DNA of 64,000 nucleotides from Patescibacteria group bacterium. Its GTDB lineage: Bacteria > Patescibacteriota > Patescibacteriia > XYB2-FULL-38-15. A model generated the notes under the pieces. It was not told the DNA's origin and did not search any database. It saw only the letters and a list, made by a program, of their open reading frames with translations. Location of the stretch: contig JBAZEY010000005.1 of the NCBI GenBank assembly GCA_041653675.1, positions 10,164 through 74,163 on the forward strand, read 5' to 3'. Below, piece after piece: positions 3,471-64,000 of this stretch (its first letter is position 1; each line of letters opens with the position of its first letter). The position numbers and the translations under genes are program-made.

Positions 3471-3502
3471 TATTATAACATGTTTTATTTTTAACGTTTT
3501 TG

Positions 3503-3606
3503 CCAATGCGGCGTCGACGCTTCGCGTCTCCTTAAAACCCTTCGGTTTTAATATTTCCGCCACGGGAAAACTATCGTTTTCCCGACCCCTTTCCAGTCCT
3601 CGCGTC
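3503..3606. repeat. Structured repeat element, copy A (~105 nt; three hairpins). Second copy at ~35300-35415 in opposite orientation.
   Basis: Core TTAAAACCCtTCGGTTTTAATATTTCCGCcACGGGAAAACTatCGTTTTCCCGACCCCTTTCC is >90% identical to the reverse complement of 35335-35396. Hairpins are AAAACC/GGTTTT, GGGAAAAC/GTTTTCCC and GACGC/GCGTC. Confidence 0.6.
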
Positions 3607-3612
3607 AAAAGC

Positions 3613-4164
3613 TTAGCGCTTTTGCCACTGCGGTGCTCTTCTCGCGCGCTTGAGGCCCGGTTTCTTTCTTTCCTTTACTCTAGGATCGCGAGTTAAAAAT
3701 CCAGCCTTGCGTAAATTCTTTTTAAAATTAACATTTAAAAGAACCAGTGCGCGAGAAATACCAAGGCGCACCGCCTCAGCCTGGCCGCGTAAACCGCCGC
3801 CAGATGATTTCGCTTCAATATCAACTTTATCCGCTTGGCCGACTGATTTTAATGGTCCGGAAACAATTTGTTCCATCTCTTCGGTCGGAAAACATTCTGT
3901 GTATAATTTTCCGTTAACCGTAATTTTGCCCTTGCCATTTTTATGAAGTCTCACGGTGGCAACAGCTTCTTTGCGCCGACCAATAGCATAAATATATCCC
4001 GATTTTTTATCTTCGGATATTTTTTCTTCGGCAACCGCCACTGTTTCTTTCTTTTCTTCCAGCTCCGGTTTTTCTTCCACCACTTTCTTTTTAGCAACTC
4101 TTTTCGCGGCCGGTTTGGTAGTCGCAGTTTTTGTCTTTTTAGGTTTTTTTATTTCCTCAGTCAT
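3613..4164 (-). CDS. rpsI: 30S ribosomal protein S9 with ~55-aa K/E-rich N-terminal extension
   Basis: C-terminal ...GYIYAIGRRKEAVATVRL...RDPRVKERKKPGLKRARRAPQWQKR is canonical S9. Confidence 0.9.
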   Translation of the reverse strand: MTEEIKKPKKTKTATTKPAAKRVAKKKVVEEKPELEEKKETVAVAEEKISEDKKSGYIYAIGRRKEAVATVRLHKNGKGKITVNGKLYTECFPTEEMEQIVSGPLKSVGQADKVDIEAKSSGGGLRGQAEAVRLGISRALVLLNVNFKKNLRKAGFLTRDPRVKERKKPGLKRARRAPQWQKR

Positions 4165-10954: not shown

Positions 10955-11785
10955 CTACTCGCCTTCCGCGATCTCCACGAGCCTGCGCTCGAAGGATCGC
11001 CGCTTCGGCTCCCGTTCGAGGTAACCGCACACGACCTTCTTGACGTTGAACATGTCGGGCAAATCGCCGACAAACCCGAAGAGCCCGCGGAGTCTTTCGA
11101 GCTGCACCTGCAGGGCGCGAGCGTAAACCAAGCCGTGCGAACGGCCCATGGTGAGAATCGTTGCCTCCGAGAAGCCGGGCCCCTTTTCCGGCATCTGCCT
11201 GGCCTCTGCGAGAATCAGGAGCGCCGCCCTTTCGGGATCCCCCGCCGACCCCCTCGGTGCGTAGCAGAAATTGATTGTGGCCGCACACTGGGCGTCGAAC
11301 CAATTTCCCGCCCGTGCTGCTTCCAGACAGTCCTCGCGTACTTGGGTCGCCCACTTCCCGAAAAACGTCTGCCGGTTCACCTTGGAGGTGTCGATCACCC
11401 ATTGCCAAGCGAAGACGGTCGGCGAGTTTGGGATGTCATAGACATGAATCAGGGCGTCACCCAACTCAGCCTTCATCGCCTCGAGGCGCGAATACGGCGA
11501 CAATCTCCAATAGTCCACCTTCTCGCAGCCTGCGATCTTGGCCTGGATTGCCGCCTCTTCCGGTGTAGCCCGCCGAAGCTTGGCCGACAGGTGGCCGTTT
11601 CCGGCGTCATGGCTCTCCACTTCCACTACAGGAAACCCCAGAGCTTTTCCCATGGCTTGGAGAACCTTGTGTTGATCGGCCGTGTACCATTCGAACCACG
11701 CGGCGGAGATCTCCTCTCCGACCGCACGGATCTCCCCGGAAATGTATTCACCTAGCGCGAACTTCACTTCACGATTTTCCGCCAT
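10955..11785 (-). CDS. Hypothetical protein (GC island 2), 276 aa
   Basis: AGGAGG RBS 8 nt upstream of the ATG (MAENREVKFALGEY...). ~60+% GC. The region is open in several frames, and this is the longest ORF with an RBS. No known domain recognised. Confidence 0.5.
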   Translation of the reverse strand: MAENREVKFALGEYISGEIRAVGEEISAAWFEWYTADQHKVLQAMGKALGFPVVEVESHDAGNGHLSAKLRRATPEEAAIQAKIAGCEKVDYWRLSPYSRLEAMKAELGDALIHVYDIPNSPTVFAWQWVIDTSKVNRQTFFGKWATQVREDCLEAARAGNWFDAQCAATINFCYAPRGSAGDPERAALLILAEARQMPEKGPGFSEATILTMGRSHGLVYARALQVQLERLRGLFGFVGDLPDMFNVKKVVCGYLEREPKRRSFERRLVEIAEGE

Positions 11786-12473: not shown

Positions 12474-14639
12474 TTATTTAAAACCGTTATTCTTCTGATT
12501 CTGGCCGCCCGTTTTCGGCGGAAAATTTTGTTTACCTCCGCCCCCGCCCCCATTTTTCTTTTTTGCCTGACGCTCTTTTTCTTTTTCAGTCTTAAGGCAG
12601 GCCTTACAATAAACCGGGCGATTCGGATCGGGGTTGAAAGAAACCCGGTCCGACTTCCCGCAGGCAGAACAAGTTATTTCATAAGGAAATTTTTCCTCGA
12701 ATGTTCTTTTATCATCGCCCTTTCCCTTTTCTTTTTCTTTTTTTCCCTCTTCTTTTTTGATGGACAGGGCGGGAGGAACGGGCAACGCGGCCGGAGCTGA
12801 TTTTTTTTCTTCAAGAACAGCGGGCAGATTTTGCGGAATAGGCGCAATTTTCTTCTCGTCCGGTTCATCCAGATTTAAGGGCGACGGGACGTCTTCTTCT
12901 ACGATTGATTTTTGAGGGATATTTTCTTCTTGTTTTTTAACCAACACTCTTTTTTCTTCTCTTACGGGCTTTGGAACAAGCGGCGGCTGCTTTATTTTGA
13001 TATCTATATCAATTTTTTCCTTTGGTTTAATCACAACTTTCGGTGGACGAACAATTACGGTAGGCACAATAACTTCTTTTTGCACCTCTCGCTCTTCATT
13101 AAATTTTTCTCTTTTTTCCGGCTCTGATTCAAAAATTTTTAAGAAATTAACAGCTTGTACTTTTGATTTTTCCAAAATTGCTTCACGAGCGGTGATGGCG
13201 CGCTCTTCAAGCTCGACTTGCGACATTTCTGGTTTTTTCTTTTCTTCTACCTCTACTGCTACCGCCCCGCTTTTTATGCCTTCCGCTTCTTGTTTTTTTT
13301 CTTCAATTAATTTTTTAATCTCCGCCTCCAGTTCTTCGTCGGATTTTTCTTCAGTGCCGATAACCTGCATTCCGCTCCAGCGAATAATCTTTTCCTCAAC
13401 GATTTCCTTCGGCTTGGCGTAACGTTCCCGGGAAACGCGAATGACTTTATCTCTATTATCAGTCGGTCCCGTAACCGGTGGGAGACCCGACGCAGAAAAA
13501 GGCGTTGATGATACGCCATCAATCATCAATTTCATGTACGTATCGTATTTGGTCAAATTTACTAAATCTTCGGCCGTGAAAGTCGGCAAAAATTCTTTTT
13601 CCAAAACCTCGGCATCGGCCGCGCCAATCCGGAAAGCAACAATTGTTCCGACGTTACCAAAAACGGCGGCGGCAACTTCTTCGGCCAACTGTTCAATATA
13701 TTGATGGGCTAAAACTAAATTCAAACGATATTTTCTGGCTTCAGACAAAATATTGGCAAAACTCAAAGTAGCAAAATTTTGAAATTCATCGACATAAAGA
13801 TAAAAATCTTTTCTTTGGGGTTCTGGAATGTCCACCCGGCCCATGGCCGCCAACTGAATTCTTGTAACAAGCATATTTCCCAAAAGGGCGCTCGCGTCCT
13901 CACCAATCCGGCCTTTAGCCAAATTCATTATAAAAATCTTCTGGCTGTCCATAATTTCGCGCATATCAATTGTGGATTTCACCTGGCCGACAATATTTCT
14001 AACAATTGATGCCGATAAAAATTGACCAACCTTATTTTGGATAGGCGCGATCGCTTCCGTGGCGAACCTTTCATTATATTTGGCAAATTCATCAACCCAA
14101 AAAGCTTTGACAACCGGGTCTTTCAGTTTAAGAATAACTTTTTTCCGATAATCCCGGTCGGCTAACATTCTGTTAATTCCAAGCATGGTCGATCCCGGAC
14201 AATCCAAAAGCGCGAGAATTGTGTTATTCAAAATATATTCCATTCTGGCTGACCAAACATCAGGCCATATTTTTTTGAAAACTCCCATCATGCCCGAAGC
14301 AACAAGGTGTTTATATCTTGGATCAATAGATTCCAAAATATTAAAAGCAATCGGCCAGTCCAAATCAGCCGGATTAAAATAAACCACGTCGTTGATTCTA
14401 TCCGCCGGGATAAAATCAAGAATTTTTTCCGCCAAATCGCCGTGTGGATCAACCACGCCTACGCCGCGTCCCGCCCGGATATCGGAGATAATTAAATTCT
14501 CCAGCGTGGTCGTTTTGCCCATGCCGGTTTTACCGATGATGTACATGTGCCGACGGCGATCGTCGGTTTTAATGCCGAAACGTTTTCGAGCTCCTCGAAA
14601 ATTTGTTTCAGCAAATAATGCTACCTCCTCGTTTTGCAT
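12474..14639 (-). CDS. TraD/TraG/VirD4-like coupling-protein-type P-loop ATPase, with a ~330-aa K/E/P-rich tail, C4 zinc ribbon and Gly6 C-terminus
   Basis: Walker A HMYIIGKTGMGKTT, VVDPHGDL, Walker B-like FYLYVDEFQNF. Tail has ...CSACGKSDRVSFNPDPNRPVYCKACL...GGGGGGK. Paralogous to the C-terminal half of 56533-59199. Confidence 0.6.
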   Translation of the reverse strand: MQNEEVALFAETNFRGARKRFGIKTDDRRRHMYIIGKTGMGKTTTLENLIISDIRAGRGVGVVDPHGDLAEKILDFIPADRINDVVYFNPADLDWPIAFNILESIDPRYKHLVASGMMGVFKKIWPDVWSARMEYILNNTILALLDCPGSTMLGINRMLADRDYRKKVILKLKDPVVKAFWVDEFAKYNERFATEAIAPIQNKVGQFLSASIVRNIVGQVKSTIDMREIMDSQKIFIMNLAKGRIGEDASALLGNMLVTRIQLAAMGRVDIPEPQRKDFYLYVDEFQNFATLSFANILSEARKYRLNLVLAHQYIEQLAEEVAAAVFGNVGTIVAFRIGAADAEVLEKEFLPTFTAEDLVNLTKYDTYMKLMIDGVSSTPFSASGLPPVTGPTDNRDKVIRVSRERYAKPKEIVEEKIIRWSGMQVIGTEEKSDEELEAEIKKLIEEKKQEAEGIKSGAVAVEVEEKKKPEMSQVELEERAITAREAILEKSKVQAVNFLKIFESEPEKREKFNEEREVQKEVIVPTVIVRPPKVVIKPKEKIDIDIKIKQPPLVPKPVREEKRVLVKKQEENIPQKSIVEEDVPSPLNLDEPDEKKIAPIPQNLPAVLEEKKSAPAALPVPPALSIKKEEGKKEKEKGKGDDKRTFEEKFPYEITCSACGKSDRVSFNPDPNRPVYCKACLKTEKEKERQAKKKNGGGGGGKQNFPPKTGGQNQKNNGFK

Positions 14640-23292: not shown

Positions 23293-23880
23293 TTATCTTC
23301 TATAAATTCTGCTTGACACAGTTGTTTCTAAATAAATTGTTTGTTGTTCTTCCACCCGACCACCGATGCCTTTAGTCGCCAAAACAATCGTCACTCTCGG
23401 CTGATTATCGGAATCATAAGTATTTCCCGCATTCATTAAAAACGGATCAACTGCCGGATCGATATAAAATTTTAAATCTTCCACATTATTTCCCTTTGAA
23501 GTAATACTTGCCCAGGTTACTCCCCCGTCGATACTAACCGTGAGACATTTAGCCGTTCCCGCCGGACAATTATCCGCACTTTTTTTAAAAATAATTGAAT
23601 TATTATCCGCGTCCAAAAGCGCCAGCTCGTCTTCGGGCAAAGTTATTCCGGCGGCGTAACCAGCCCAACCATAATCAATCATATCCATTTTTATTTCTTT
23701 AGACATTGCCTCCATGGAGTAACGCGCGTCAGATTGAATTTTTTCTATCGCCAAGGTTCGGCGCTGTGCCTTGCCCGCCATCATAAAAATATCAATAATA
23801 ACAACCGTTGCCACGGAAAAAATTGCGAGTACAACCATCATTTCAACTAATGTAAAACCTTTTTTATTCATAAGAGACAT
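23293..23880 (-). CDS. Type IV minor (pseudo)pilin with prepilin leader
   Basis: MSLMNKKGFTLVEMMVVLAIFSV... is a class III signal (G/FTLVE). Confidence 0.55.
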   Translation of the reverse strand: MSLMNKKGFTLVEMMVVLAIFSVATVVIIDIFMMAGKAQRRTLAIEKIQSDARYSMEAMSKEIKMDMIDYGWAGYAAGITLPEDELALLDADNNSIIFKKSADNCPAGTAKCLTVSIDGGVTWASITSKGNNVEDLKFYIDPAVDPFLMNAGNTYDSDNQPRVTIVLATKGIGGRVEEQQTIYLETTVSSRIYRR

Positions 23881-24656: not shown

Positions 24657-25172
24657 TTATTCAACATCAATTCTCCCCGAAACCCGATTGACTAAAATTT
24701 TTCTGATCTTGCCGCTAATATTGTGCTTCAAATCTACTTCTAAAACATTGTCGGCTGTGCCGCCATTAATATAAGCTGTCGGCTTTGGTGGTTTAAAAAC
24801 CACACTGGAATTAGCAAGCGGCTGCACTCCCGTGATGACAACATTCTTTGCGAGAATAATTTTTCCATCCAATAAATCTTCACCCAAATCATATTTTTGA
24901 TTGCCGTTAAAATCAGCAAAAACAATATATTGAAGCGGCGTACCAAGAGTAAAATAAACTCCATATCCTCCTGGGGGCGTTATCCCACCTACCTGCTCTC
25001 CAGCCAAAGCCATATTCTGTGCTTTGCGTAAATTGGAAACAAGGGTATCGGCCGCGATTTTTAATTCATCGCTCTGACTTCCTCCCCGAAAATTTGTAAC
25101 AACCATGGCCGTCACAACGACAAAAATTCCCAAAGAAACAAGAAGTTCAATTATCGTAAAACCTTTTTTCAT
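24657..25172 (-). CDS. Type IV pilin / GspH-FimT-like pseudopilin
   Basis: MKKGFTIIELLVSLGIFVVVTAMVV... prepilin N-terminal methylation motif. Confidence 0.55.
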   Translation of the reverse strand: MKKGFTIIELLVSLGIFVVVTAMVVTNFRGGSQSDELKIAADTLVSNLRKAQNMALAGEQVGGITPPGGYGVYFTLGTPLQYIVFADFNGNQKYDLGEDLLDGKIILAKNVVITGVQPLANSSVVFKPPKPTAYINGGTADNVLEVDLKHNISGKIRKILVNRVSGRIDVE

Positions 25173-26042: not shown

Positions 26043-26522
26043 TTACTGCAGGCCTGCCGGAGTAACTTTGTGAGCTCCCTTTAGCAAATCTCCAGTATTT
26101 CCTTCCAAGTAAAAACAGAATTCGTAAGTAGTAGCCGTCGGGACTACTTTGACGGAATAATTACAAGGAGCTTGGACTGTCGCGTCACAAGCGGCGGCGC
26201 AAGCGGCTGCACCATTCGGATCTTTCAAATTAAGTATCCCTGGCAAAAATTCCGTAATTGGAGTCGCAGGAAGGACTGGACCATTACAAGAGCTAAGCAA
26301 AGCGCCCGGAGCGGCACAACCCGCCATCACGTAAGAATTATTGGCGCTAAACATCAATTCCATGGCTGTCTGAACCTGCTTCATATCTGAAACTCTCTTT
26401 GAGTCTCTTGATTTCTGTCTGGCTGAACTCAAAGCAACGACCGCCAAAGTTGAAAGCAAGCCGATAATGGCGATAACCACCAACAATTCAATCAAAGTGA
26501 AACCTTTTTTATTTTTAAACAT
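26043..26522 (-). CDS. pilA: Type IV major pilin
   Basis: MFKNKKGFTLIELLVVIAIIGLLSTLAVVALSSARQKSRDSKRVSDMKQ... is a classic type IVa pilin N-terminus. 159 aa with C-terminal Cys pairs. Confidence 0.8.
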   Translation of the reverse strand: MFKNKKGFTLIELLVVIAIIGLLSTLAVVALSSARQKSRDSKRVSDMKQVQTAMELMFSANNSYVMAGCAAPGALLSSCNGPVLPATPITEFLPGILNLKDPNGAAACAAACDATVQAPCNYSVKVVPTATTYEFCFYLEGNTGDLLKGAHKVTPAGLQ

Positions 26523-34885: not shown

Positions 34886-35302
34886 TTATTTAAACTTCGT
34901 ACTGTGGTCAATCGCCTCATTAACCAATTTATCCGCTTCTTTATTTTTTTCCCGCGGCACATGAGTAAAAGTCGCTTTTTTAAAACCCATGCTCAAATTC
35001 CAAACCTGAACAAAAAGCGCCGCTAAATCTTTATCCTTAACTTTATATTCGCGATTTATTTGTTTCACAACCAGCTCGCTATCCAGAAAAAAATTTAATT
35101 CCTCTGCGCCAATTTTTTTTACCTCTTCAAGCGCCAAAATCACGGCTTTGTACTCTGCTTGATTATTTGTCGCCTCGCCAATATATTTTTTGTGCTGCCC
35201 AACCAACTCGTTGCCATTCCAAATCACAACGCCAATTCCCGCCGGTCCGGGATTTCCCCGCGCCCCACCATCGGTAAAAATTTGAAGTTTGTTATAAATC
35301 AT
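34886..35302 (-). CDS. rnhA: Ribonuclease HI
   Basis: MIYNKLQIFTDGGARGNPGPAGIGVV...EYKAVILALEE... is an RNase H fold. The track ORF extends to a TTG at 35332. An alternative duplicated start exists 170 bp upstream. Confidence 0.85.
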   Translation of the reverse strand: MIYNKLQIFTDGGARGNPGPAGIGVVIWNGNELVGQHKKYIGEATNNQAEYKAVILALEEVKKIGAEELNFFLDSELVVKQINREYKVKDKDLAALFVQVWNLSMGFKKATFTHVPREKNKEADKLVNEAIDHSTKFK

Positions 35303-35460
35303 AATGTTAAATAAAATTAACGCCCGGACCAAGGAAAGGGGTCGGGAAAACGCAGTTTTCCCGTAGCGGAAATATTAAAACCGAGGGGTTTTAAAGAGGC
35401 GTGAAGCGCCGATGGTCTGGGATTTCCCCGCGCCCCACCATCGGTAAAAATTTGAAGTTT
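35244..35460. repeat. 42-47-bp direct repeat (35244-35290 and 35414-35460), each containing codons ~4-18 of rnhA, flanking repeat element copy B
   Basis: AAACTTCAAATTTTTACCGATGGTGGGGCGCGGGGAAATCCC(A/G)GACC occurs twice, 170 bp apart. The upstream copy follows its own ATG (MAYQKLQIFTDGGARGNP...). Confidence 0.6.
35300..35415. repeat. Structured repeat element, copy B (reverse complement matches 3503-3606)
   Basis: Reverse-complement core is TTAAAACCCcTCGGTTTTAATATTTCCGCtACGGGAAAACTgcGTTTTCCCGACCCCTTTCC. Stems are conserved and loops differ. Flank hairpin GGCG/CGCC vs GACGC/GCGTC in copy A. Confidence 0.6.
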
Positions 35461-35473
35461 TTGATATGCCATA

Positions 35474-37198
35474 TTATTCACTCATTTTTAAATCAATAAT
35501 TTTCATCTGCAACTCCCTATTTCCATTCCACTCATTGACATCTACTTCAAAAACTACGTCAACTTTATCTCCCACTTTTAATTTCTGGCACCACTCACCA
35601 AAACAAAAACCGATAAATTTTTTCCGAACACCATTCCCCTGACTTAAACTTATTCTTAAATGATTTCCGTTTGTGCCCACACTCTCAAAACTTTCCACCG
35701 CAAAACCTCTCCCCAAATACTTTGGCCGCTCATTTGCCCTACCAAACGGAGCGAATTTTTCTAAAAGTTCAAACAACTCCCAATTTATTTTTTCCAAACG
35801 CACTTCTGCGTCAATATTCAACGTCCGTACAAGTTCCATGCCGGCTAATTTTTTTTCCGCGATTTTTTTTAATATTTTTTCAAATTTTTTTAAATCTTTT
35901 TTATTCTTTAAAGTAAACCCGCAGGCTCCGGCGTGTCCGCCATAATGGGATAAAAGTTCTCTTGTCTCGTGGAGGCTTTCGGTAATATCAAATTCAGGAA
36001 TACTTCTGCCTGAACCCATAATATCTTCTTCCCTTTCGGTCATGATAAAAGTCGGCCGCCAAAAATTTTCGGCAATTTTCCCAGCAACTAAACCCACAAT
36101 CCCGACTGGCCATCCTTCTCCCTTGGCAAATAAAATTTTCTGTTCACCAATGTCTTCTCCAATTTGCGCCTTTGCCTCGGCCATAACCCGCTCGCTCAAA
36201 CTCTGCCGTCCTTCATTAGTCTTATTTAGAGAACTAACCAATTCATCAACTTCATTTGCGTCATCCGTTTTTAAAAGTTCGTAAGCTTGATTCGCGTGGT
36301 CAATTCTGCCAGCGGCATTCAGGCGCGGCCCGATTTGAAAAGCTACATTCTTTGCGTCAAGATCTTTATTTTTATTTAATCCCAAGGACTCAATTAACTT
36401 TTTTAAACCAATCCGTTGTGTTTTATTCAAAACTAAAAGACCGTATTTTACCAAAGTGCGATTCTCTCCCAAAAGCGGCATAATATCAGTAATCGTTGCG
36501 ATTGCTACTAAATCCAACAGCCATTTTTCAAATCCTTCGGGATCAATTTTAAAATCCAAAGTTTTAAATTTGGGGCTTCGAAGAATTGCTTGCACCAATT
36601 TAAAAGCCACTCCCGCCCCAGCTAATTCGCGAAATGGGTATTTTTCGCGAGCAAGATGCGGATCAATAATCGCGAAAGCAGCTTCTGGTAAATTTGGCGG
36701 CTCGGCGTGATGGTCGGTAATAATCACATCCATACCAAGTTCCGTGGCTCTTTTTATTTCCAGCCGGTTACTAATTCCGCAGTCCGTTGTGATTATTAAA
36801 TTTACTCCATTTTTCCCAAGTTCTTCCACGGTTTGCATATTAAGTCCATAACCTTCAAGCTCGCGATGAGGCAAATAAACCTGGGCGTCAGCACCCATTG
36901 CCGAAAGAGTAGCTACCATAACCAACGCCGAACAAACTCCATCGGCGTCGTAATCACCATGAACTGTAATTTTTTCCTTTTTCTCTATGGCTAGAAAAAC
37001 CCGATCCACTGCTTTTTCCATATCTAAAAATAAAAACGGATCGTGAATATCCTGGCTATAATCGGGATATAAAAATTCATCAATCTTTTCCTGAGTCTTA
37101 ACACCCCGGTTAGCAAGCAATTGCAAAATTACCGGATCAATCTCCGGAAATTTATTTTTAAATTCTTCGCTGATTGTTTCGGCTACCCGCCACTTCAT
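35474..37198 (-). CDS. recJ: Single-stranded-DNA-specific exonuclease RecJ
   Basis: DHH motifs (...TVHGDYDADGVCS..., ...ITTDCGIS..., ...IITDHH...) and a DHHA1 C-terminal domain. 574 aa. Confidence 0.9.
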   Translation of the reverse strand: MKWRVAETISEEFKNKFPEIDPVILQLLANRGVKTQEKIDEFLYPDYSQDIHDPFLFLDMEKAVDRVFLAIEKKEKITVHGDYDADGVCSALVMVATLSAMGADAQVYLPHRELEGYGLNMQTVEELGKNGVNLIITTDCGISNRLEIKRATELGMDVIITDHHAEPPNLPEAAFAIIDPHLAREKYPFRELAGAGVAFKLVQAILRSPKFKTLDFKIDPEGFEKWLLDLVAIATITDIMPLLGENRTLVKYGLLVLNKTQRIGLKKLIESLGLNKNKDLDAKNVAFQIGPRLNAAGRIDHANQAYELLKTDDANEVDELVSSLNKTNEGRQSLSERVMAEAKAQIGEDIGEQKILFAKGEGWPVGIVGLVAGKIAENFWRPTFIMTEREEDIMGSGRSIPEFDITESLHETRELLSHYGGHAGACGFTLKNKKDLKKFEKILKKIAEKKLAGMELVRTLNIDAEVRLEKINWELFELLEKFAPFGRANERPKYLGRGFAVESFESVGTNGNHLRISLSQGNGVRKKFIGFCFGEWCQKLKVGDKVDVVFEVDVNEWNGNRELQMKIIDLKMSE

Positions 37199-37380: not shown

Positions 37381-37589
37381 AGTTCTTGTGTGGGATTTAA
37401 AGATAGTCAAAAATGACTAAAATTTTGTTTTTGTTATTAATCCCTTTTCTCTAAACCATTTCGCTGATTTAGAGGAAAGGGACTTGGAGCAAGATCCTGT
37501 CACGCCTCGATTTCTCGATTTGTGAACAGTGTCTGCATTGCACAGACTACTTGCTCCAAGAAAATGTTGGAAGGAACGAACTGGCAGAA

Positions 37590-38522
37590 CTAGCGCTTCT
37601 TGCCGCCGCCGTTCGAGCCCTTCTGGCCGCCCTTGTGGCGCTTGCCGGCACCGAAGCGCGTGTTGCCCACGGCCAGGGCGAGTTTCCGGCGACGGTCCCA
37701 ACGCCGCGCTTCCCGCTCGGCGCGGCTGAGCTGCGGCTTCACCTCGGTCGCGACCGCCGGCTTCTTCGGCTCGGGCTGCTTCGGGGGCGAAACGACCTGG
37801 TCCGCGTCCTTCTTGTTCCGCCGCTCGATCTCCATCTGGGCGCCGCGGTAGTCGAAGAGTTGGATGCTCCTCAACGCCCCGGCCTTGATCAGGACGGCGT
37901 ACTGCTCGCGACAGATCCCGGCGACCGCGCGCTTGCCGTCCTTGTCCTTCACGATCGCGTAGCGCGTTACGAACTCGTCGTCGCGGTGGAGTAGGCAGTT
38001 CGGCACGCCGCAAACCACCCTACCCTTCTCGTCCCGGAGCGCCTGGAGCGGCTCGGCCGTGCCGACCACGACCGCCTTCCAGTAGTCCACGGCGGCGGCC
38101 TCGGCGCGGATCGCGGCGTTCCTCACGCCGACGATCCCGTAGAGCGCCCCGATCTTCATCAGGTGGCGGCGCTCTTCGGGCGACATCCGCCCCTCGGCGC
38201 AGGGGTTGCAGATCGGCTCGAAGCCCCAGAGCTTCAGACCGTCCCGCTCGATCTGGACGAGGAGAGCGAGCTTGATCTTGCCGACGGAGTTCCCGTCGGC
38301 GTGCCCGCACTTCGAGCAGACCCGCTTCGGCTTCGGCGCTTCGGTCACGACGATCGGGTCGTCGACCGGCTTCTCCGGCTCGACCGCGACCGGCTCCGCC
38401 ACCTCCGTCGTCATGGACGGCATGGCGGCGAGGACCATCTCTTCGTACTCTTCATCGGTCAGGTTCCCGAGGCCCGCCGACACCGGCACCACGATTCCCA
38501 TCGTCGTCTCCGCCATGTTCAT
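37590..38522 (-). CDS. Hypothetical zinc-finger protein with basic C-terminal tail (GC island 3), 310 aa
   Basis: AAGGAGA RBS 1-2 nt before the ATG (MNMAETTMG...). CSKCGH...CNPC and CGVPNC motifs. C-terminal ...RRWDRRRKLALAVGNTRFGAGKRHKGGQKGSNGGGKKR. ~65-70% GC by eye. Confidence 0.5.
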   Translation of the reverse strand: MNMAETTMGIVVPVSAGLGNLTDEEYEEMVLAAMPSMTTEVAEPVAVEPEKPVDDPIVVTEAPKPKRVCSKCGHADGNSVGKIKLALLVQIERDGLKLWGFEPICNPCAEGRMSPEERRHLMKIGALYGIVGVRNAAIRAEAAAVDYWKAVVVGTAEPLQALRDEKGRVVCGVPNCLLHRDDEFVTRYAIVKDKDGKRAVAGICREQYAVLIKAGALRSIQLFDYRGAQMEIERRNKKDADQVVSPPKQPEPKKPAVATEVKPQLSRAEREARRWDRRRKLALAVGNTRFGAGKRHKGGQKGSNGGGKKR

Positions 38523-45861: not shown

Positions 45862-46194
45862 ATGAAACTCAAGCCGACCGTCTTAGAATTGCAGGTGTTG
45901 GAGCTGACTGAGTACATGAGACTCAAGCCGACCAACATCACCTTGGGCGCGGGTTGCGTGATCGGTTTCTACCGGAACGAACGTTGCATCGTGGTTATGC
46001 CCGAATCGGGCAGCGGAGTTCGGATCGACTGGCCGGGCACAAACGACGACAAGCGGATCGCGCCTCCGTGCATCAAGACGGAGAAGGATTTTCTCGACGT
46101 CGTCAATCTCTTCGCCGCGATGCTCGGTCTCCAGGCCGTCCCCGACAGCTTCGAGCGGCCGTACGGGATCGCCCTTCGCCTCGTCAAGCGGTAG
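45862..46194 (+). CDS. Hypothetical protein (GC island 4, cassette 1), ~110 aa, with duplicated N-terminal MKLKPT/MRLKPT
   Basis: RBS GAGGAGAaagagtccATG. 21-nt repeat ATGAAACTCAAGCCGACC / ATGAGACTCAAGCCGACC in frame 54 nt apart. GC-rich. No domain recognised. Confidence 0.45.
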   Translation: MKLKPTVLELQVLELTEYMRLKPTNITLGAGCVIGFYRNERCIVVMPESGSGVRIDWPGTNDDKRIAPPCIKTEKDFLDVVNLFAAMLGLQAVPDSFERPYGIALRLVKR

Positions 46195-46240
46195 CGGACA
46201 GAACAAGTCGTAAAACGGTTTGCAAACATGCGAACTGACC

Positions 46241-46268
46241 GAGAGCCTTCGACAAGCTCTCTTTTTTA
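46241..46268 (+). terminator. Terminator GAGAGC-CTTCGACAA-GCTCTC followed by T6. Identical copy at 46890-46919.
   Basis: Read directly. Preceded by the shared 15-mer AACAAGTCGTAAAAC. Confidence 0.65.
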
Positions 46269-46281
46269 TTTAAAGCCGATC

Positions 46282-46331
46282 TTGACAATTTGCTAAATAT
46301 CTGATATTATTCAATGTCACAATTTCGTGAC
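46282..46331 (+). promoter_or_regulatory. Island 4 cassette 2 promoter TTGACA-N17-TATTAT plus operator-like palindrome GTCAC-aatttc-GTGAC (46316-46331)
   Basis: TTGACAatttgctaaatatctgaTATTATtcaatGTCACAATTTCGTGAC read directly. Near-identical in layout to 45788-45837. Confidence 0.55.
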
Positions 46332-46869
46332 TAGAAAGAAGGAGGCCGTGCGCTACTTGTTCATTCCGAGTTGCGAAGTGGCGATGAAGAATGTGCTGAC
46401 TGGCACGACTACCGAAAAGCGCCTCATCCGCGGCCTCGATCTTTGGCGGGCAGGCGGCTACGACGCCATCATCGTGACGGGCGGCATCTATTTGCCGCCA
46501 GAACAACAGACGATCCCCTCGGGAATCTTGATGGAATACTGGCTCATCGAGCACGGTGTGCCAGAGAAGGCCATCATCTGCGAAGATCACTCACGCGATA
46601 CCTTCGAAAACATTTCTGGCGCCCTGACACTCATCGCCGACGACCCCGCGCCAGAATTCACGGTCGTGACCCACTGGCAGCACGCGCTGCGGTTCTGGGT
46701 AACCTTCCACCTCGCGCACCGGCGCAAGATTCGCCTCGTGCCGATGTGGTACTGGACCGATCTCAAGGGTTTTGTGTTGGAGTGGGCATTCCTGCTCGTA
46801 CATCTTCTCGATCGAAACGGAACCGGCCGGATCGCCACTCGGAACCGCGACAGTCACAACAAGTCGTAA
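46327..46869 (+). CDS. DUF218 (YdcF/ElyC/SanA-like) domain protein (GC island 4, cassette 2). True start probably downstream of the AAGGAGG at 46339-46345 (TTG 46356 or ATG 46384).
   Basis: DUF218 hallmarks ...YDAIIVTGGI... and ...CEDHSRDTFEN... GC-rich. The coordinates given are the track ORF. Confidence 0.5.
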   Translation: MTRKKEAVRYLFIPSCEVAMKNVLTGTTTEKRLIRGLDLWRAGGYDAIIVTGGIYLPPEQQTIPSGILMEYWLIEHGVPEKAIICEDHSRDTFENISGALTLIADDPAPEFTVVTHWQHALRFWVTFHLAHRRKIRLVPMWYWTDLKGFVLEWAFLLVHLLDRNGTGRIATRNRDSHNKS

Positions 46870-46889
46870 AACAATTCGGCCACGGCCGG

Positions 46890-46919
46890 ATAGAGCCTTC
46901 GACAAGCTCTCTTTTTTTA
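46890..46919 (+). terminator. Second copy of the AGAGCCTTCGACAAGCTCTC plus T7 terminator
   Basis: 19/19 identity of the stem-loop with 46241-46261. Confidence 0.65.
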
Positions 46920-47519
46920 TTTTAATTTTTTAAAAAAATCATCTATCGGAGGCTTAAAATATTCTTTGAATAACGGATCAATAAATTTATATTTTTCTCC
47001 CCTCTTTTGCATTTTGTATTTTTTCGGCCCGACTATGTCGGCCATAATTGAATCAACGATTCTTTCTTTTTCATTTTGATTTATTTTGTATTTTTGAATA
47101 TATGACTCAATCGCGAGGTGGACAATCTCGTGCAAAAGTGTGTTCAGCGGCGACACCGCGTTTATATTAAGAATGATTTTGTCTGGCGGAACATAAGATC
47201 CACCGACTCCGTATTTCGTGAGAATTAATTGATAACTTTTTCTTATTTTTTTACCGCATATTTTTCCTAGTCGGCCGTAGAAATCTTTTTCTATTTTTGA
47301 AAAATTTTTCTTGGCCGCGTCCGCGGCTTTTTTATAATCTCTTTCTTTGTATTCTTTTCTGAGTGCGGTGTATATTTTTTCCAAACTATCAATTTTTGGA
47401 TTAATATTTTTTGGAAAACAGGGAATATATCCAAATTTTTTATACCAGGAAAATTTTTTTACGGCACTTTGAATCCGTTGTTTCTCCGTATTAATGTTGT
47501 ATTTTATCTCTAGCGGCAT
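46917..47519 (-). CDS. Hypothetical protein with HExxH motif (possible metallopeptidase-like)
   Basis: ...NTLLHEIVHLAIESY... 200 aa, K-rich. No confident family. Confidence 0.35.
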   Translation of the reverse strand: MPLEIKYNINTEKQRIQSAVKKFSWYKKFGYIPCFPKNINPKIDSLEKIYTALRKEYKERDYKKAADAAKKNFSKIEKDFYGRLGKICGKKIRKSYQLILTKYGVGGSYVPPDKIILNINAVSPLNTLLHEIVHLAIESYIQKYKINQNEKERIVDSIMADIVGPKKYKMQKRGEKYKFIDPLFKEYFKPPIDDFFKKLK

Positions 47520-56532: not shown

Positions 56533-59199
56533 TTATAATGACCTTTCCCCCACCATTGGCCCGGCAACTCCCTCTGGCACGCCGAGCTGCGTTCTCTCGG
56601 AAATTTCCGCTTCCACGATACTTTTATCGCGGCCGTATTTTAATCTGGCAAGTTGTTTCAAGGCTTGGGCTAATTCCGCGTCACCTTTTTGCGGCGCAAG
56701 AGTTTGCATATTAAACGCTTTGGAAGCCGCGTTATCAATTAAAAGTTTAATGTAGGCTGTGTATTTTTCCACATTCAACAAATCGTATTCGTTAACGGTC
56801 GGCGCGAATTCTTTGGCAATTGTTTCCACGTCATCCACGCCAATTCTGAAAGATATCATCGTCCCGGCATTGCCGAAAACCGCGTCGCGAATTTTTGTGT
56901 CATTATTTTTTACCAACTGCCCGACATACTGATGGGCAATCGTAAGGCACAGCCGATATTTTCGAGCTTCAGATAAAATTGTGGCGATGCTGTCGGTAAT
57001 AAAATTTTGGAACTCATCAATATAAAGATAAAAATCATGGCGCTCGGCTTCGGGCAATTCGGCCCGGCTCATCGCAGCCATCTGAAGTTTTGAAACAATA
57101 ATCAAGCCCAAAAGTTCGCTGTTCACTTCACCGGTTTTGCCTTTTGCCAGATTCACAAGCAAAATTTTCTTCTTATCCATTATTTCCCTAAAATCAAAAC
57201 CTGAACGGGATTGTCCAATAATATTTCTTATCATTTCGTTTTCCACAAATCGGCCGACTTTGGAAATCAAGTAACCCAACATTTCTGATTTATGAAAATC
57301 CGAAGTCTTGGCCATTTCTTTTTCCCAAAAAGAGCGGACAACCGGATCTTTGACTTTCGCCACCCAAGATTTTTGAAATTCATTATCGGAAAACATTCTT
57401 GGAATTTCCGCGATTGTGCCGGGATTTGCCAAATCCGACATCAAAGTCAACATCACATTTCTCATGTTATGCTCAAACATCGGACCGATCATTTCTGGCG
57501 GGAAAAGTTTATAAAAAATAGCGATCATTTCCTGGACGGCAAAATCTTTTTGCGATTCATCTTTGGCCTCAAGCATATTTAGACCAATCGGCCGGTCCGC
57601 GTCTGACGGATCAAAAATAATTACGTCGTCCAACCGTTCTTTCGGTATGCCAGTCAAAATTTCTTCAATCAAATCGCCGTGCGGATCAACTACGGCTACG
57701 CCTTCGCCATTAGCAATATCCTGCTTAACCATATTGGCAAGCAAGACAGATTTACCAACGCCGGATTTACCAATGACATAAACATGGCGGCGGCGGTCTT
57801 CTCTTTTAATTTTAACCATTACTTCCGTTCCGCGGAAAGTGGATTTCCCAAGCGTCACTCCTTCTTTTGGCATATTAATCGGCGGCGCGGCTTTTTTTGC
57901 CAAAAGCCACTGGATATTGGGCGCTTCGGTCCAGGGCGAAGGAAAATGAAAGAGACTTGCCATTTCTTCCGAGTTCAAAACAACTTTTTTCTTTTCATGA
58001 AAACCTCTATGGATAAAATCTCTAATCAATTTTTTCAAATGACGGCCGCCCGGTGCCGTACGCGCGAAACTATTTCCGTATTGATAAATATTATACTGGG
58101 AAAAAGCGTTCGAAATATTATCCAAATTCATTTTTGCCCGCGCGCTATTTGGTGATGATGAGATGATTCTAACATTGACATCAACTCCAGCCTTACTCGC
58201 CTTTTCTTCAAGACCCTTTACCATTTCCTCTTCCATCGGCGAAAGACGATAAATTTCCGGTTGAGGCTTTAATTGATCTTCTGGTTTCTTTTTCGTTCCG
58301 CCGGCAAACATTTTTCCCAATTCTCCCAATATTTTCATGAAGATATTTCCGCTAACCGATGACATTGCTTCGCCAAGCTTCTTTCCTTGTTGCATTTCCT
58401 GGGCAATTTTTATGCCTGGCCGGCGCCATTCTTTACGCGCTGAGCGTATTACAAATTGAATAGCCGCGCCTTCATTTTTTTCCAACTTTGAGAGGACGTT
58501 TGTCAGACCGTTCATCGGGTCTGTCTCCATTTTTTTATAAGTTTTTATCGGGAAAAAATGCGGGCGCTTGAAAGTTAAATAAGCGCCGCGGATATCTCCG
58601 GTCGGCGTAAAAATATTATAATCTTTGATTTCTTCAATAAAAGCCTCGTGATAATTCGCTCTGATTTGCTGTTCAATATATTCCTGCAAATATTTTGGCA
58701 CGGCTACATAAAAAGAAATTAACCCTTTGTCGGCGATAATTTCAAAAGAAAGATAATCTGTCCGTCCGGTAAGCCAGGCGCCAATTCCTTTTTGCGCTTT
58801 TAATCCGCCAATCGACGCGAAAAGAGCTTCGGCCGTGGCAACACCCTCTTGAATAGTTTGGACGGTAATCTCTCTTTTTTCCTGAGCTTGGGCCCTTTCC
58901 GCTGATTCTTTGGGAACCGTAACGAGCAAAACTATATTTTTAAAAGAGGTGGACATCTTTGTCCGATGATGCAAAAATTTTCTAAGCAGAGAAATTAAAA
59001 ACCACGATCCTAAAAAAATCGCGGCAAGCGTAAAAATCATTATGCCAATCGGACTCTCCGCAAAACTTCCGACTTCTTCAGGAATTTCCGGAGTCGGCAG
59101 GGTAATTTGATAAAAGGAAAAAACGAAAAGCGCGGCGAGCGCAGTGCTCGGTAGCCATCTTTTTATTTTATGCCAATTTTTTTTCTCTACATCCTCCAT
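56533..59199 (-). CDS. Fused membrane-anchored TraD/VirD4-like coupling-protein-type ATPase (888 aa). N-half resembles 14646-16073 and C-half resembles 12474-14639.
   Basis: Two N-terminal TM segments. Walker A HVYVIGKSGVGKSV, VVDPHGDL, FYLYIDEFQNF. Linker ...APPINMPKEGVTLGKSTFRG... is continuous where the other locus is split. Confidence 0.6.
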   Translation of the reverse strand: MEDVEKKNWHKIKRWLPSTALAALFVFSFYQITLPTPEIPEEVGSFAESPIGIMIFTLAAIFLGSWFLISLLRKFLHHRTKMSTSFKNIVLLVTVPKESAERAQAQEKREITVQTIQEGVATAEALFASIGGLKAQKGIGAWLTGRTDYLSFEIIADKGLISFYVAVPKYLQEYIEQQIRANYHEAFIEEIKDYNIFTPTGDIRGAYLTFKRPHFFPIKTYKKMETDPMNGLTNVLSKLEKNEGAAIQFVIRSARKEWRRPGIKIAQEMQQGKKLGEAMSSVSGNIFMKILGELGKMFAGGTKKKPEDQLKPQPEIYRLSPMEEEMVKGLEEKASKAGVDVNVRIISSSPNSARAKMNLDNISNAFSQYNIYQYGNSFARTAPGGRHLKKLIRDFIHRGFHEKKKVVLNSEEMASLFHFPSPWTEAPNIQWLLAKKAAPPINMPKEGVTLGKSTFRGTEVMVKIKREDRRRHVYVIGKSGVGKSVLLANMVKQDIANGEGVAVVDPHGDLIEEILTGIPKERLDDVIIFDPSDADRPIGLNMLEAKDESQKDFAVQEMIAIFYKLFPPEMIGPMFEHNMRNVMLTLMSDLANPGTIAEIPRMFSDNEFQKSWVAKVKDPVVRSFWEKEMAKTSDFHKSEMLGYLISKVGRFVENEMIRNIIGQSRSGFDFREIMDKKKILLVNLAKGKTGEVNSELLGLIIVSKLQMAAMSRAELPEAERHDFYLYIDEFQNFITDSIATILSEARKYRLCLTIAHQYVGQLVKNNDTKIRDAVFGNAGTMISFRIGVDDVETIAKEFAPTVNEYDLLNVEKYTAYIKLLIDNAASKAFNMQTLAPQKGDAELAQALKQLARLKYGRDKSIVEAEISERTQLGVPEGVAGPMVGERSL

Positions 59200-62232: not shown

Positions 62233-64000
62233 TTAGTTTGCCCGCAATCCAGTGTCGGAAAAAGTTCCGGCCCCGCCACAAAAAGCTTTTGCTTCACCGC
62301 CGCCGTAGTCAGCAATCAACCTTCCTTCGTTCGCCGCGCCGTCATTACACCTATAAACAATAAATACCCCGGCGCCAGCGGGACAATTTGTTCCATCTTG
62401 TAAACAAACATTCTTCCCGGAAACTGTAGCGTTGCCGACTACCGTCAATGAACCAGACACTTGCAGTTCATCATTCACATAAACGTAATTAGCCGGATAA
62501 TCAATATCTGCCCGGAGAGTAAGGTTCCCCGCGTTAACGCCCGGAATAGAAGAATCCGTGGACAGAAGCCCCGTTGTACCATCGTGTCTTAAAACTACTG
62601 CCTTTGTATTGCTTACATCGCTCGTCTGCAGGGTACCGCCTCCGTAAGCATTGACGCTGCTTCCACTTACTTGTCCATCACTAAAAAATGAACTGCTGGA
62701 ATAGAACCTTCCCATCATATCTTCCCATTTTATATATTTTGTCCCATCATCAAAATAAATATAATCATCATTTCCCGCCGCAGCCACTCCAACATTTAAA
62801 TTTCCACCGACCGTAAGCGCATCCGCAGCTTTATCAAAAGTTAAACCAGCATCACCCGTAAAAATTCCGCCGTCGTTAAACTGAATCTGTCCTGCCACGC
62901 CCCCGGGCGTAACTCCCGCCGGCCACGCGCCAAGACAATTTCCTTGAATACAAAGTTTCACGACATTTAATGTTCCAGCTCCTCGATATCCACCCGCTGC
63001 CGCGCCCACGACTTCAGCCTCAGCATAAACTCCTTTCCCGCCCAAAAAATATCCGCCCCAACCATCAGCCGCGCCAGCTTCTCCATAAACCGCCGTACTG
63101 CCCGCGCCAGATGCCTGAAAAAATCCGCCATAACTTGCCCCGTTGCCCTTGACTCCGACCCCCAAAGCGCCAGCTGCCGTAAAATAACCGCCATAATTTG
63201 CCACTGCTCCATTTGATGTCGCTTCACCATAAACGCCCATCACACTACCAGCACCAGACGCCTCACCGTAAACGCCACGGGCAAAATTAGTCGCGCTTAA
63301 AGTTTTTCCGTGAACGCCGTAATTAATTCCCGCGACGGCCGTCGCTTCGCCATAAATTCCTTTACCGTTGCCCGCCGAACTGGATCCCTGAATCGCCGGC
63401 GTTAAATTTGTATTCGCGTTTATTTGGCCAGCCACGTCAAGCTTGTAGGTTGGAATTATTGTGCCAATGCCTACGCTTCCGTCGCTTGTTACAATCAACC
63501 TGTTTGTTTCTCCCACTCCAGCTTTCCAAAAACGCAACTGATCAGTTCCCGTATCGCGGTAAATCGCCCAGTGCGTATCCATTGCCGGACTGCCAAAATC
63601 CAATTCTGGATTGCTGCCAGGCGTTGGGAGAAGATAAATTCTTGGCGCTACGCCACCAACCATTAAATTGAAGGCTGTATTTGTTGTCCCAATTCCCACA
63701 TTGCCGGCGGCGCCAATCATTATCCGACCAACTCCGTTTGTTTCAAAAGACATGGGTACATTATCATTGGTTCCTAAAACCGCGGTCGGACCAAAGCCAA
63801 TATTTCCTTCATCAACAAAAGCACTCACCGCTTCGGGCCAATTATTGCGACAATTTCCTTGAATACAAAGTTGCTCGGCATTCAATGTTCCCACACCCAT
63901 ATTTCCTCCGGCTGGCACGCCGACAATCTGCCCTTGACCCACGGAAAAATTTCCGCCGATAGTTAAATCGCCGGTTTTAATTTGCGCCCCGGCGCCAACA
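62233..64000 (-). CDS. Large Gly/Ala/Val-rich repeat surface protein (beta-helix/fibre-like), 5' end beyond the window
   Basis: Repeats GVYGEA(T/S), two LCIQGNC(x)WP modules, many GxG tracts. The reading frame stays open upstream of the M at 63942 to the window edge. Confidence 0.45.
   Translation of the reverse strand, partial: VGAGAQIKTGDLTIGGNFSVGQGQIVGVPAGGNMGVGTLNAEQLCIQGNCRNNWPEAVSAFVDEGNIGFGPTAVLGTNDNVPMSFETNGVGRIMIGAAGNVGIGTTNTAFNLMVGGVAPRIYLLPTPGSNPELDFGSPAMDTHWAIYRDTGTDQLRFWKAGVGETNRLIVTSDGSVGIGTIIPTYKLDVAGQINANTNLTPAIQGSSSAGNGKGIYGEATAVAGINYGVHGKTLSATNFARGVYGEASGAGSVMGVYGEATSNGAVANYGGYFTAAGALGVGVKGNGASYGGFFQASGAGSTAVYGEAGAADGWGGYFLGGKGVYAEAEVVGAAAGGYRGAGTLNVVKLCIQGNCLGAWPAGVTPGGVAGQIQFNDGGIFTGDAGLTFDKAADALTVGGNLNVGVAAAGNDDYIYFDDGTKYIKWEDMMGRFYSSSSFFSDGQVSGSSVNAYGGGTLQTSDVSNTKAVVLRHDGTTGLLSTDSSIPGVNAGNLTLRADIDYPANYVYVNDELQVSGSLTVVGNATVSGKNVCLQDGTNCPAGAGVFIVYRCNDGAANEGRLIADYGGGEAKAFCGGAGTFSDTGLRAN

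Follow-up and report, generated by a model that had tools for sequence, protein, structure and literature searches.

Integrative elements that replace gene ends, such as the islands that enter tRNA genes by crossover in the T-loop, or e14 and phage 21 at icd, have a fixed junction near the gene end, direct repeats that run to that end, a restored gene, an orphaned original end, synonymous differences between the two ends and a fixed orientation. The tRNA T-loop is a classical crossover site of integrases, and the icd site is used by both e14 and phage 21, with gene-end copies there that differ mainly at synonymous sites. The miniature inverted-repeat transposable elements (MITEs) and other small repeats (Correia/NEMIS, ERIC, RUP, BOX, REP/BIME) are small, non-coding, multi-copy and hairpin-forming, and lie between genes in either transcriptional orientation as dispersed copies whose occupancy differs between relatives. 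In integron attC and in the attP(+) hairpin of the CTX phage (XerCD), two inverted segments of a single strand recreate a duplex. Guide-bearing elements (IS200/IS605 ends, their PATE derivatives, the omega RNA of TnpB, the IS110 bridge RNA and the exon-binding sites of group II introns) combine a folded scaffold with a short segment complementary to the target, and base triples or triplexes occur in several of their scaffolds. The element described here, which resembles each of these systems in part, is present twice in a 64,000-nt stretch of a Patescibacteria group bacterium (assembly GCA_041653675.1, contig JBAZEY010000005.1, positions 10,164 to 74,163), referred to below as the window. On balance, its copies A (3514–3612, plus strand) and B (35321–35413, minus strand, the reverse complement of A) probably belong to a family of non-autonomous insertion elements of about 85–130 nt which duplicate gene ends in Patescibacteria (candidate phyla radiation, CPR). 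Copy A is the version at the 3′ end of rpsI and copy B the version at the 5′ end of rnhA.

Read in the orientation that puts copy A on the plus strand (E+), both copies have the same polar order of parts: an orphan gene end (T′), hairpin 3, hairpin 1, a linker, hairpin 2, a 3′ tail, an inverted copy of the target (invT), an optional spacer, the intact gene end (T) and the gene body. Copy A is placed between rpsI (ribosomal protein S9, 3613–4164) and queA, and copy B between recJ and rnhA, with all genes around both copies on the minus strand. By its gene content the window resembles a CPR/Patescibacteria genome, and its close homologues carry the label Patescibacteria. A reading of the letters alone (the sequence-only reading) had correctly placed the two copies in opposite orientations relative to these neighbours, which is the case because A lies at a gene 3′ end and B at a 5′ end. 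It had also proposed that both were copies of one structured repeat, and the aligned core, word counts and a covariance model bear this out. Words of 28 and 20 nt taken from the core are each present at exactly two places in the window (0.00–0.02 expected from shuffles), the covariance model with filters off detects two copies only (90.6 and 84.9 bits, the next-best match scoring 15.6 bits), and a repeat finder returned the A/B pair as the longest inverted repeat of the window. The two copies can be aligned from about 3514 to 3594 against 35413 to 35333, and within the core from hairpin 1 to the tail (3532–3594 versus 35333–35394) 59 of 63 aligned positions are the same (94%), in line with the >90% core identity first reported.

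In copy A, T′ (3491–3513, minus; TTAACGTTTTTGCCAATGCGGCG) is an orphan duplicate of the rpsI 3′ end, reads ..PHWQKR-stop and is a direct repeat of 3613–3635 (21/23 nt). It lies in its native downstream context beside a terminator-like hairpin and queA, an arrangement also found at the orthologous locus L129. The variable hairpin 3 at the left end of the element (3516–3528, plus; GACGC-TTC-GCGTC, with GCGAAGC on the opposite strand) is replaced in L129 by another hairpin (GTCCCGC-ACG-GCGGGAC). Hairpin 1 (3532–3551, plus; TTAAAACC-CTTC-GGTTTTAA) has 8 bp, with compensatory changes at 8/8 pairs across the family; of the three hairpins in the sequence-only reading, 2 and 3 stood as described, whereas this one had been given as 6 bp. 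It is followed by the single-stranded linker (3552–3563, plus; TATTTCCGCCAC), the columns of which are near-invariant in the alignment, and by hairpin 2 (3564–3583, plus; GGGAAAAC-TATC-GTTTTCCC), recovered by folding and by covariation. The tail (3584–3594, plus; GACCCCTTTCC) mirrors the 3′ strand of hairpin 2, covaries with that hairpin and is a candidate third strand of a triple helix. The degenerate inverted rpsI end (invT, 3595–3612, plus; reverse complement GCTTTTG-ACGCG..) abuts the rpsI stop codon; the element extends to about 3612 and not, as first delimited (3503–3606), to 3606. The predicted fold pairs 3496–3513 with 3603–3613 in a long-range helix that closes T′ on invT. The functional rpsI 3′ end (T, 3613–3635, minus; TTAGCGCTTTTGCCACTGCGGTG; ..PQWQKR-stop) is contiguous with the gene body at 3613–4164.

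All features of copy B lie on the minus strand. Its T′ (35414–35472; MAYQKLQIFTDGGARGNPRP..) is the orphan native rnhA 5′ end, 59 nt long and 1 nt past the recJ stop codon (35474–35476). Hairpin 3 (35398–35410; GGCG-CTTCA-CGCC) was found by folding, and hairpin 1 (35375–35394; TTAAAACC-CCTC-GGTTTTAA) and hairpin 2 (35344–35362; GGGAAAAC-TGC-GTTTTCCC) by folding and alignment, all three hairpins being predicted by folding in both window copies; the linker (35363–35374; TATTTCCGCTAC) and tail (35333–35343; GACCCCTTTCC) were placed by alignment. The invT of 12 nt (35321–35332; TTGGTCCGGGCG) repeats in inverted form the CCCGGACC of the functional rnhA copy. An AT-rich spacer (35303–35320), which is the same in the filled relative L187, precedes the working start codon, and the functional 5′ end (T, 35244–35302; MIYNKLQIFTDGGARGNPGP..) is contiguous with the gene at 34886–35302. 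Both the duplicated gene ends of the two copies and the wide spread of the family had escaped the sequence-only reading. It should also be noted that the orphan rnhA start reads through copy B (35317–35481, minus) as the only open frame, an open reading frame (ORF) of 51–54 aa (MAYQKLQIFTDGGARGNPRPSALHASLKPLGFNISATGKLRFPDPFPWSGR). In the public annotation the orphan start and copy B appear as a 51-aa protein gene, and the equivalent 57-aa ORF of L187 overlaps the real rnhA start.

The family is widespread in CPR. The 22-nt exact word GGTTTTAATATTTCCGCNACGGG was found at 59 loci in 48 species-representative CPR genomes, nearly all of them labelled Patescibacteria (Gribaldo-, Colwell-, Jorgensen-, Wolfe-, Uhr-, Falkow- and Azambacteria, Paceibacteria and ‘Saccharibacteria’), and the 18-nt exact word TTTTCCCGACCCCTTTCC in at least 120 metagenome contigs. 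A covariance model built from 64 cores detected 66 and 105 copies in these loci, with at least six copies in some genomes among the loci fetched. These sets were gathered by exact core words and a regular expression, which inflates the apparent conservation of the core and may bias the variants seen, but compensatory pairs are not created by such sampling. A search of the literature by sequence words and topic returned no description of the element family, which is apparently undescribed so far. Against Rfam at gathering threshold, the window and 20 loci gave only tRNA, rRNA and one group I intron, none overlapping the element; at E ≤ 10 the best sub-threshold match was RAGATH-17 (28.7 bits against a gathering score of 102.3) and no ribozyme family was matched; HEARO and the RAGATH motifs were among the families covered. 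A tRNA, tmRNA or other known RNA was rejected, as ARAGORN and Rfam (gathering, E ≤ 10) were silent at the element, and the T-loop-like words beside many copies, which could suggest a tRNA-like gene, are duplicated tRNA 3′ ends. A phage or plasmid origin was likewise rejected: IMG/VR gave no true match, and two 19-mer matches were due to chance and lay inside a phage gene. One canonical copy occurs in a metagenome-assembled genome labelled Nanoarchaeota (L162, JAUYPG010000071.1); it may stem from CPR DNA that was binned wrongly, or have been transferred between ultrasmall organisms found together.

In order, the core comprises hairpin 1 with its 8 bp, the conserved linker of pyrimidines, hairpin 2 and the 3′ tail. 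In the first set, 96.6% of hairpin 1 and hairpin 2 positions are paired and double-sided changes number 71, where shuffles gave 10.7 (0/500 shuffles); the metagenome set gave 97.1% and 182, where shuffles gave 33.8 (0/500). Compensatory change is present in 10–14 of the 16–17 pairs over the two sets (14/16 in the metagenome set, where all controls with the pairing slid along the sequence scored far lower). The proposal of a structured repeat family under selection for pairing is supported by covariation across relatives. The outcome that the sequence-only reading had named as fatal to its proposal, two copies only, none in relatives and no covariation beyond chance, is clearly not what was found. 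The compensatory change it described is overwhelming across relatives but, between copies A and B, is limited to hairpin 3.

The tail, which comes after hairpin 2 and GA(C), is the parallel complement of this hairpin's 5′ (purine) strand and varies along with it. GGGAAAA in the hairpin is accompanied by CCCTTT in the tail, GGGAGAGAA by CCCTCTCTT, GGGGGAGAA by CCCCCTCTT, GGGGAAA by CCCCTTT and GGGGAGAT by CCCCTCT. Over 18 variant types the rule is obeyed at 122/151 positions, compared with 106.6 ± 3.5 when tails are shuffled (0/20000). This covariation fits the geometry of a triple helix with the third strand in the required polarity, and a triplex is predicted from it. The strand order of purine, loop, pyrimidine, short linker and pyrimidine is that of the classical intramolecular triplex, which the linker of 2–3 nt (here GA/GAC) also fits; among known structures, such triplexes and the ENE-type RNA triple helices of transposon RNAs and lncRNAs are the nearest to the covarying third strand. 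In three variants a tail A is opposite an A-T pair. A pyrimidine motif explains these variants less well than would a purine/GT motif of the complementary strand; the strand is therefore left undecided, and the predicted triplex is compatible with either motif. Unlike known triplexes, the element would contain runs of 3–5 C+.G-C triples, which would be unfavourable at neutral pH.

Minimal versions of the element occur that are circularly permuted. Opened at the hairpin 2 loop, they run from the hairpin 2 3′ strand through tail, hairpin 1 and linker to the hairpin 2 5′ strand, with neither hairpin 3 nor the closing helix. Such permutation argues for a folded single strand and not for a duplex protein-binding site. 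It is also seen in small self-cleaving ribozymes with permutation-tolerant helices, a likeness that is circumstantial. Five unrelated sites between genes, from three species-level genomes (L135, L149, two sites in L165, and L174), carry the permuted minimal variant with the same sequence for about 73 nt, in both orientations relative to the neighbouring genes, and this identity is, as judged from the sequences, a mark of recent movement. A different terminator-like hairpin follows each of these copies. Among other variants, L010 has a second linker-hairpin 2-tail module as a nested or partial tandem, L050 has a diverged member of the family some 150 nt away from its first copy, and in L020, L041 and L166 small GC-rich palindromes (CCTGCC..GGCAGG) lie inside the hairpin 1 loop or tail of some copies and may represent a second miniature hairpin-repeat family. 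The resemblance of TAATATTTC in the linker to TAATATTAC led to a nick site of a CRESS-like Rep being considered; it was rejected because the motif is not conserved in the variant subfamilies.

The flanks of the element follow a common rule. Direct repeats of 15–100 nt were found at 102/163 copies. Of the 168 copies with enough flank, 92 have a tRNA 3′ end no more than 200 nt away on their tail side and the tRNA itself on the E− strand, while the opposite tRNA orientation was seen at one copy only; 19 tRNA specificities are represented, and the junction at these sites is the T-loop. Targets at protein 3′ ends comprise S9 (at least 12 loci, all at the same codon boundary), gyrB, L33 and others, and those at protein 5′ ends comprise EF-G, L11, TypA/LepA, a TrxR-like gene and RNase H. 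Around 85% of classified copies are downstream of, and co-oriented with, a tRNA or gene 3′ end. The gene is spared, as a complete end remains attached to its body. Of the two element junctions one is precise and the other variable. The distance from T′ to T is 60–130 nt in most loci and under about 450 nt in 95%, the whole insert measuring about 100–200 bp. The spacing before the gene depends on the target: where the target is a protein 3′ end, invT directly adjoins the stop codon, at protein 5′ ends an AT-rich spacer of 17–37 nt precedes the ATG, and at tRNAs a spacer of 20–70 nt with a terminator-like hairpin separates invT from the tRNA.

The inverted segment is specific for its own target, with a mean local score of 11.2 against 5.4 for other targets, and where T and T′ differ it is closer to T in 65 loci and to T′ in 3. 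At tRNA sites it includes the T-loop ..GAAC and so crosses the junction. There T′ often has TCAC, a changed A58 position or a 9–10-nt insertion (CGCTTCGCT), and T′ is therefore old and decaying next to the junction. When folded, the T′/invT duplex copies the target site, often with a small mismatch bubble by the junction (TCAC opposite GTTC). A retro-copy of mature tRNA was rejected as the source of T′, as CCA follows T′ in one case only and others include unprocessed trailers. In L024, about 110 nt separate an element copy from a group I intron (11083–11320; 67 bits in Rfam), which is probably inside the targeted tRNA gene because ARAGORN finds no intact tRNA there.

Presence or absence of the element differs between close relatives. 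For the recJ–rnhA locus, relatives were taken from contigs of RNase H homologues of 88–93% identity. Five of them (L185, L186, L188, L189 and L190) have a clean empty site, with the rnhA ATG 1–24 nt past the recJ stop codon, and L187 is filled at the same nucleotide as the window (after ..AATCCNGGNCC) with the same spacer. In the window, T′, including its start, and the context upstream of it are those of the empty relative L188 (ATGGCATATCAA, MAYQ), whereas T has the start that is native to the L187/L189 lineage (ATGATTTATAAC, MIYN). This mosaic indicates that the element and a replacement start came into the window lineage together by recombination. Within each filled genome, lineage-specific synonymous variants are common to T and T′, which is concerted evolution. 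At other loci the differences between T and T′ are almost all synonymous (L029, with 17 identical codons and about 11 nt differences, L113, L160, L155 and L077), implying that both were working gene ends until recently. A diversity-generating retroelement (template and variable repeats, TR/VR) was considered, but no reverse transcriptase lies nearby and it was rejected because the T/T′ differences are mostly synonymous and not adenine-specific. The whole unit is tandemly duplicated in L157 and L132, and such tandem units together with clean empty sites are the products expected of recombination between T′ and T. The sequence-only reading had preferred inserted DNA to a cis-regulatory RNA of one gene, and these empty sites, the dozens of differing insertion sites, and an orientation set by the gene end that is hit, not by the direction of transcription, all agree with that preference.

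A possible mechanism can be outlined. A single strand, of DNA or RNA, would fold into a helix junction made of hairpin 3, hairpin 1, the pyrimidine-rich linker, hairpin 2 and usually a closing helix, with the 3′ tail reading the purine strand of hairpin 2 as the third strand of an intramolecular triplex. The closing helix would be built from target sequence by pairing of T′ with invT. The element is placed 15–100 nt inside a conserved gene end, at the T-loop of a tRNA or the first or last codons of a housekeeping gene, and always in one orientation: hairpin 3 is joined to the displaced original end, and the tail is followed by invT, the spacer and a complete replacement end leading into the gene, which stays functional. 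Natural competence and recombination of linear DNA have been documented in Patescibacteria (PMC10633639). The element, along with its replacement end, may pass from genome to genome when DNA is taken up and recombines homologously by way of the conserved genes on either side. Loss or tandem amplification would then result from T′–T recombination. New sites may be colonised through a putative enzyme supplied in trans and acting on the folded single strand, the T′/invT stem mimicking the target duplex in the manner of integron attC or CTX-phage attP substrates, and the gene-attached T would be element-borne, like the replacement ends of integrative elements.

Several observations count against an insertion element of this kind. 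Among 1115 ORFs in the flanking loci there was no recurrent integrase, transposase, reverse-transcriptase or recombinase family, the neighbours being housekeeping genes; no autonomous version was found, and no long T′–T interval with ORFs save L152; it is from these negatives that the element is inferred to be non-autonomous. No copy was found in phage, plasmid or viral collections (blastn; IMG/VR words). Repeat edges tend to fall within a few nucleotides of a start or stop codon, also in L163 and L031, where the two repeats are identical, and a purely mechanical duplication from staggered cuts would not predict this. Very divergent lineages carry the element at one and the same S9 codon boundary, and conservation of the core is high, which would also fit an old element kept for a host function. 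Stem mismatches show no bias between G-T and A-C (16 versus 11, and 9 versus 5), so that neither the strand nor RNA as opposed to DNA can be assigned, and an assignment of strand from wobble pairs was dropped. The sampling of the sequence sets may also have coloured the picture, and the proposed mechanism gives no account of the way in which a new target comes to have an invT and a replacement end of its own. As a separate observation, the interval in L152 (3620–4010), the only long one between element and tRNA, holds an ORF of about 130 aa of unassigned function (MESEKSDMDGKLEQLALRIEEEE...).

These points bear on three other explanations. It is unlikely, though worth weighing, that the element is a host-functional structured RNA module, serving as a 3′-end stabiliser, terminator or processing signal at tRNA and ribosomal-protein genes or as a leader, with the gene-end duplications as by-products of copying. 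The very strong conservation of the core with compensatory changes across CPR classes would be expected of such a module, as would the persistence of orthologous S9 and rnhA copies across species with hairpin 3 rebuilt as a new hairpin, and circular permutation is typical of folded RNAs. The strand shared by the co-oriented downstream majority would be co-transcribed, and in the transcript invT could pair with the functional gene end, to which it is complementary. The transcribable strand, however, flips between 3′-end and 5′-end targets and is mixed for the minimal variant, the stems have no G-U bias, close relatives lack the element at the same locus, there are two copies only in 64 kb and the tRNA-Gln of the window is without one, simple scans of the window copies found no promoter or terminator signal on the relevant strand, and the orphan gene ends would be left unexplained. 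For an independently transcribed small RNA, which the sequence-only reading had kept in reserve, nothing was found in favour: the strand relative to neighbours is inconsistent, again without G-U bias to either strand.

An RNA-mediated element, SINE-like or retrozyme-like, would take the core as a ribozyme or as a recognition fold for reverse transcriptase, with target-primed reverse transcription, template switching or fold-back giving rise to invT and the variable duplication. Triple helices protect the 3′ ends of transposon RNAs, and the signature in the tail is like these; the variable duplications of 15–100 nt, one precise and one variable junction, the permuted cores and the choice of highly expressed genes as targets are of the same kind. 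We nevertheless regard this origin as quite improbable, since no reverse transcriptase lies near any copy in the flanking ORFs, no Rfam ribozyme family was matched even at E ≤ 10, T′ copies of tRNA ends lack a consistent CCA and in part carry an unprocessed trailer, and the mainly synonymous T/T′ differences and imported start codons point to DNA recombination. Residual attL/attR scars of larger integrative elements (prophages or islands) that carried replacement gene ends would account for the direct repeats from a fixed crossover point to the gene end, for the use of the T-loop, and for T/T′ differences as mainly synonymous as those at icd. There is very little chance that this is the answer, as the same folded core of about 65 nt lies between the repeats at dozens of unrelated targets, T′ and T are mostly 60–130 nt apart, no integrase is nearby, and the viral and plasmid collections gave no match.

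The non-autonomous insertion element that we favour can be compared with the described systems on this basis. The sequence-only reading had called it MITE-like, which in the strict sense does not apply, although its size and its dispersed copies of variable occupancy are like those of MITEs. There are no fixed terminal inverted repeats such as a MITE takes from its parent IS, the left end (GTCGC../hairpin 3) and the right end (tail GACCCCTTTCC) not being inverted repeats of each other, and the sole inverted pair, T′/invT, is target-derived and different at every site. Likewise, of the target-site duplications for which it suggested a check, the short kind of fixed length is absent, and 15–100 nt of gene end are duplicated instead, together with the inverted target segment at one element end. 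The core, moreover, is kept across a superphylum with covariation of the triplex type, unlike in the small repeats. By analogy, the element works most like a gene-end-replacing integrative element shrunk to about 100 nt and lacking an enzyme of its own. It differs from these in its insert of about 100–200 bp with no integrase between the repeats, in the use of one core for dozens of unrelated targets and in the extra inverted target copy. In integron attC and CTX attP the recombinase and the site are known and the sequence is not target-derived, whereas the stem described here changes with each target; invT is an inverted target copy that reaches the junction, and the use of this stem as a recombination substrate is putative. 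Guide-bearing elements, with which it shares a scaffold joined to target-derived sequence, do not duplicate 15–100 nt of the target, and, unlike them, the present element has no associated transposase, nuclease or reverse transcriptase gene and no Rfam match.

More tentatively, and with the balance of probability on the other side, the family could form a new class among mobile elements, one whose members bring a mimic of the target with them: a triplex-bearing folded strand would present an inverted target copy rewritten for each site, and a putative enzyme would insert it at the ends of essential genes with regeneration of the gene end, in a programmable, gene-sparing manner confined to the ultrasmall CPR bacteria. 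If so, the core could represent a ribozyme, or a scaffold for a recombinase, of a new kind. The chance that the mechanism is new is substantial, and if a dedicated enzyme does recognise the target-mimicking stem and triplex core, the two could make up a new integration system that is retargetable by nature. Much of bacterial diversity belongs to CPR/Patescibacteria, whose non-coding and mobile DNA is almost unknown. With its conserved sequence and covarying structure in many CPR classes, and its insertion in tRNAs and core translation genes, the family offers a CPR-wide marker; recombination and gene flow among CPR lineages can also be read from it directly in natural sequences. It accounts for orphan gene fragments and spurious small ORFs such as the ‘gene’ between recJ and rnhA. 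It also poses a concrete problem, the origin of the inverted target copy and of the replacement gene end, which can be tested now in cultivated, transformable Saccharibacteria.

Other features of the window lie apart from the element. GC-rich islands were found at 2001–2500 (58%), 11001–11500 (61%), 37501–38500 (64–69%) and 46001–47000 (51–55%), against a window mean of about 41% GC, and contain Arg/Pro-rich low-complexity frames on both strands (e.g., 1900–2477 and 37417–38013). Diverged direct repeats at 13726–13969 and 56954–57197 (70%) and at 62934–63009 and 63849–63924 (79%) are probably paralogous coding segments. A 61-nt repeat is present at 23805–23865, 25109–25169 and 26450–26510, with a spacing of about 1.3 kb; its reverse complement encodes prepilin-type N-termini (KKGFTL(V/I)E..), and the three are probably tandem pilin-like paralogues.

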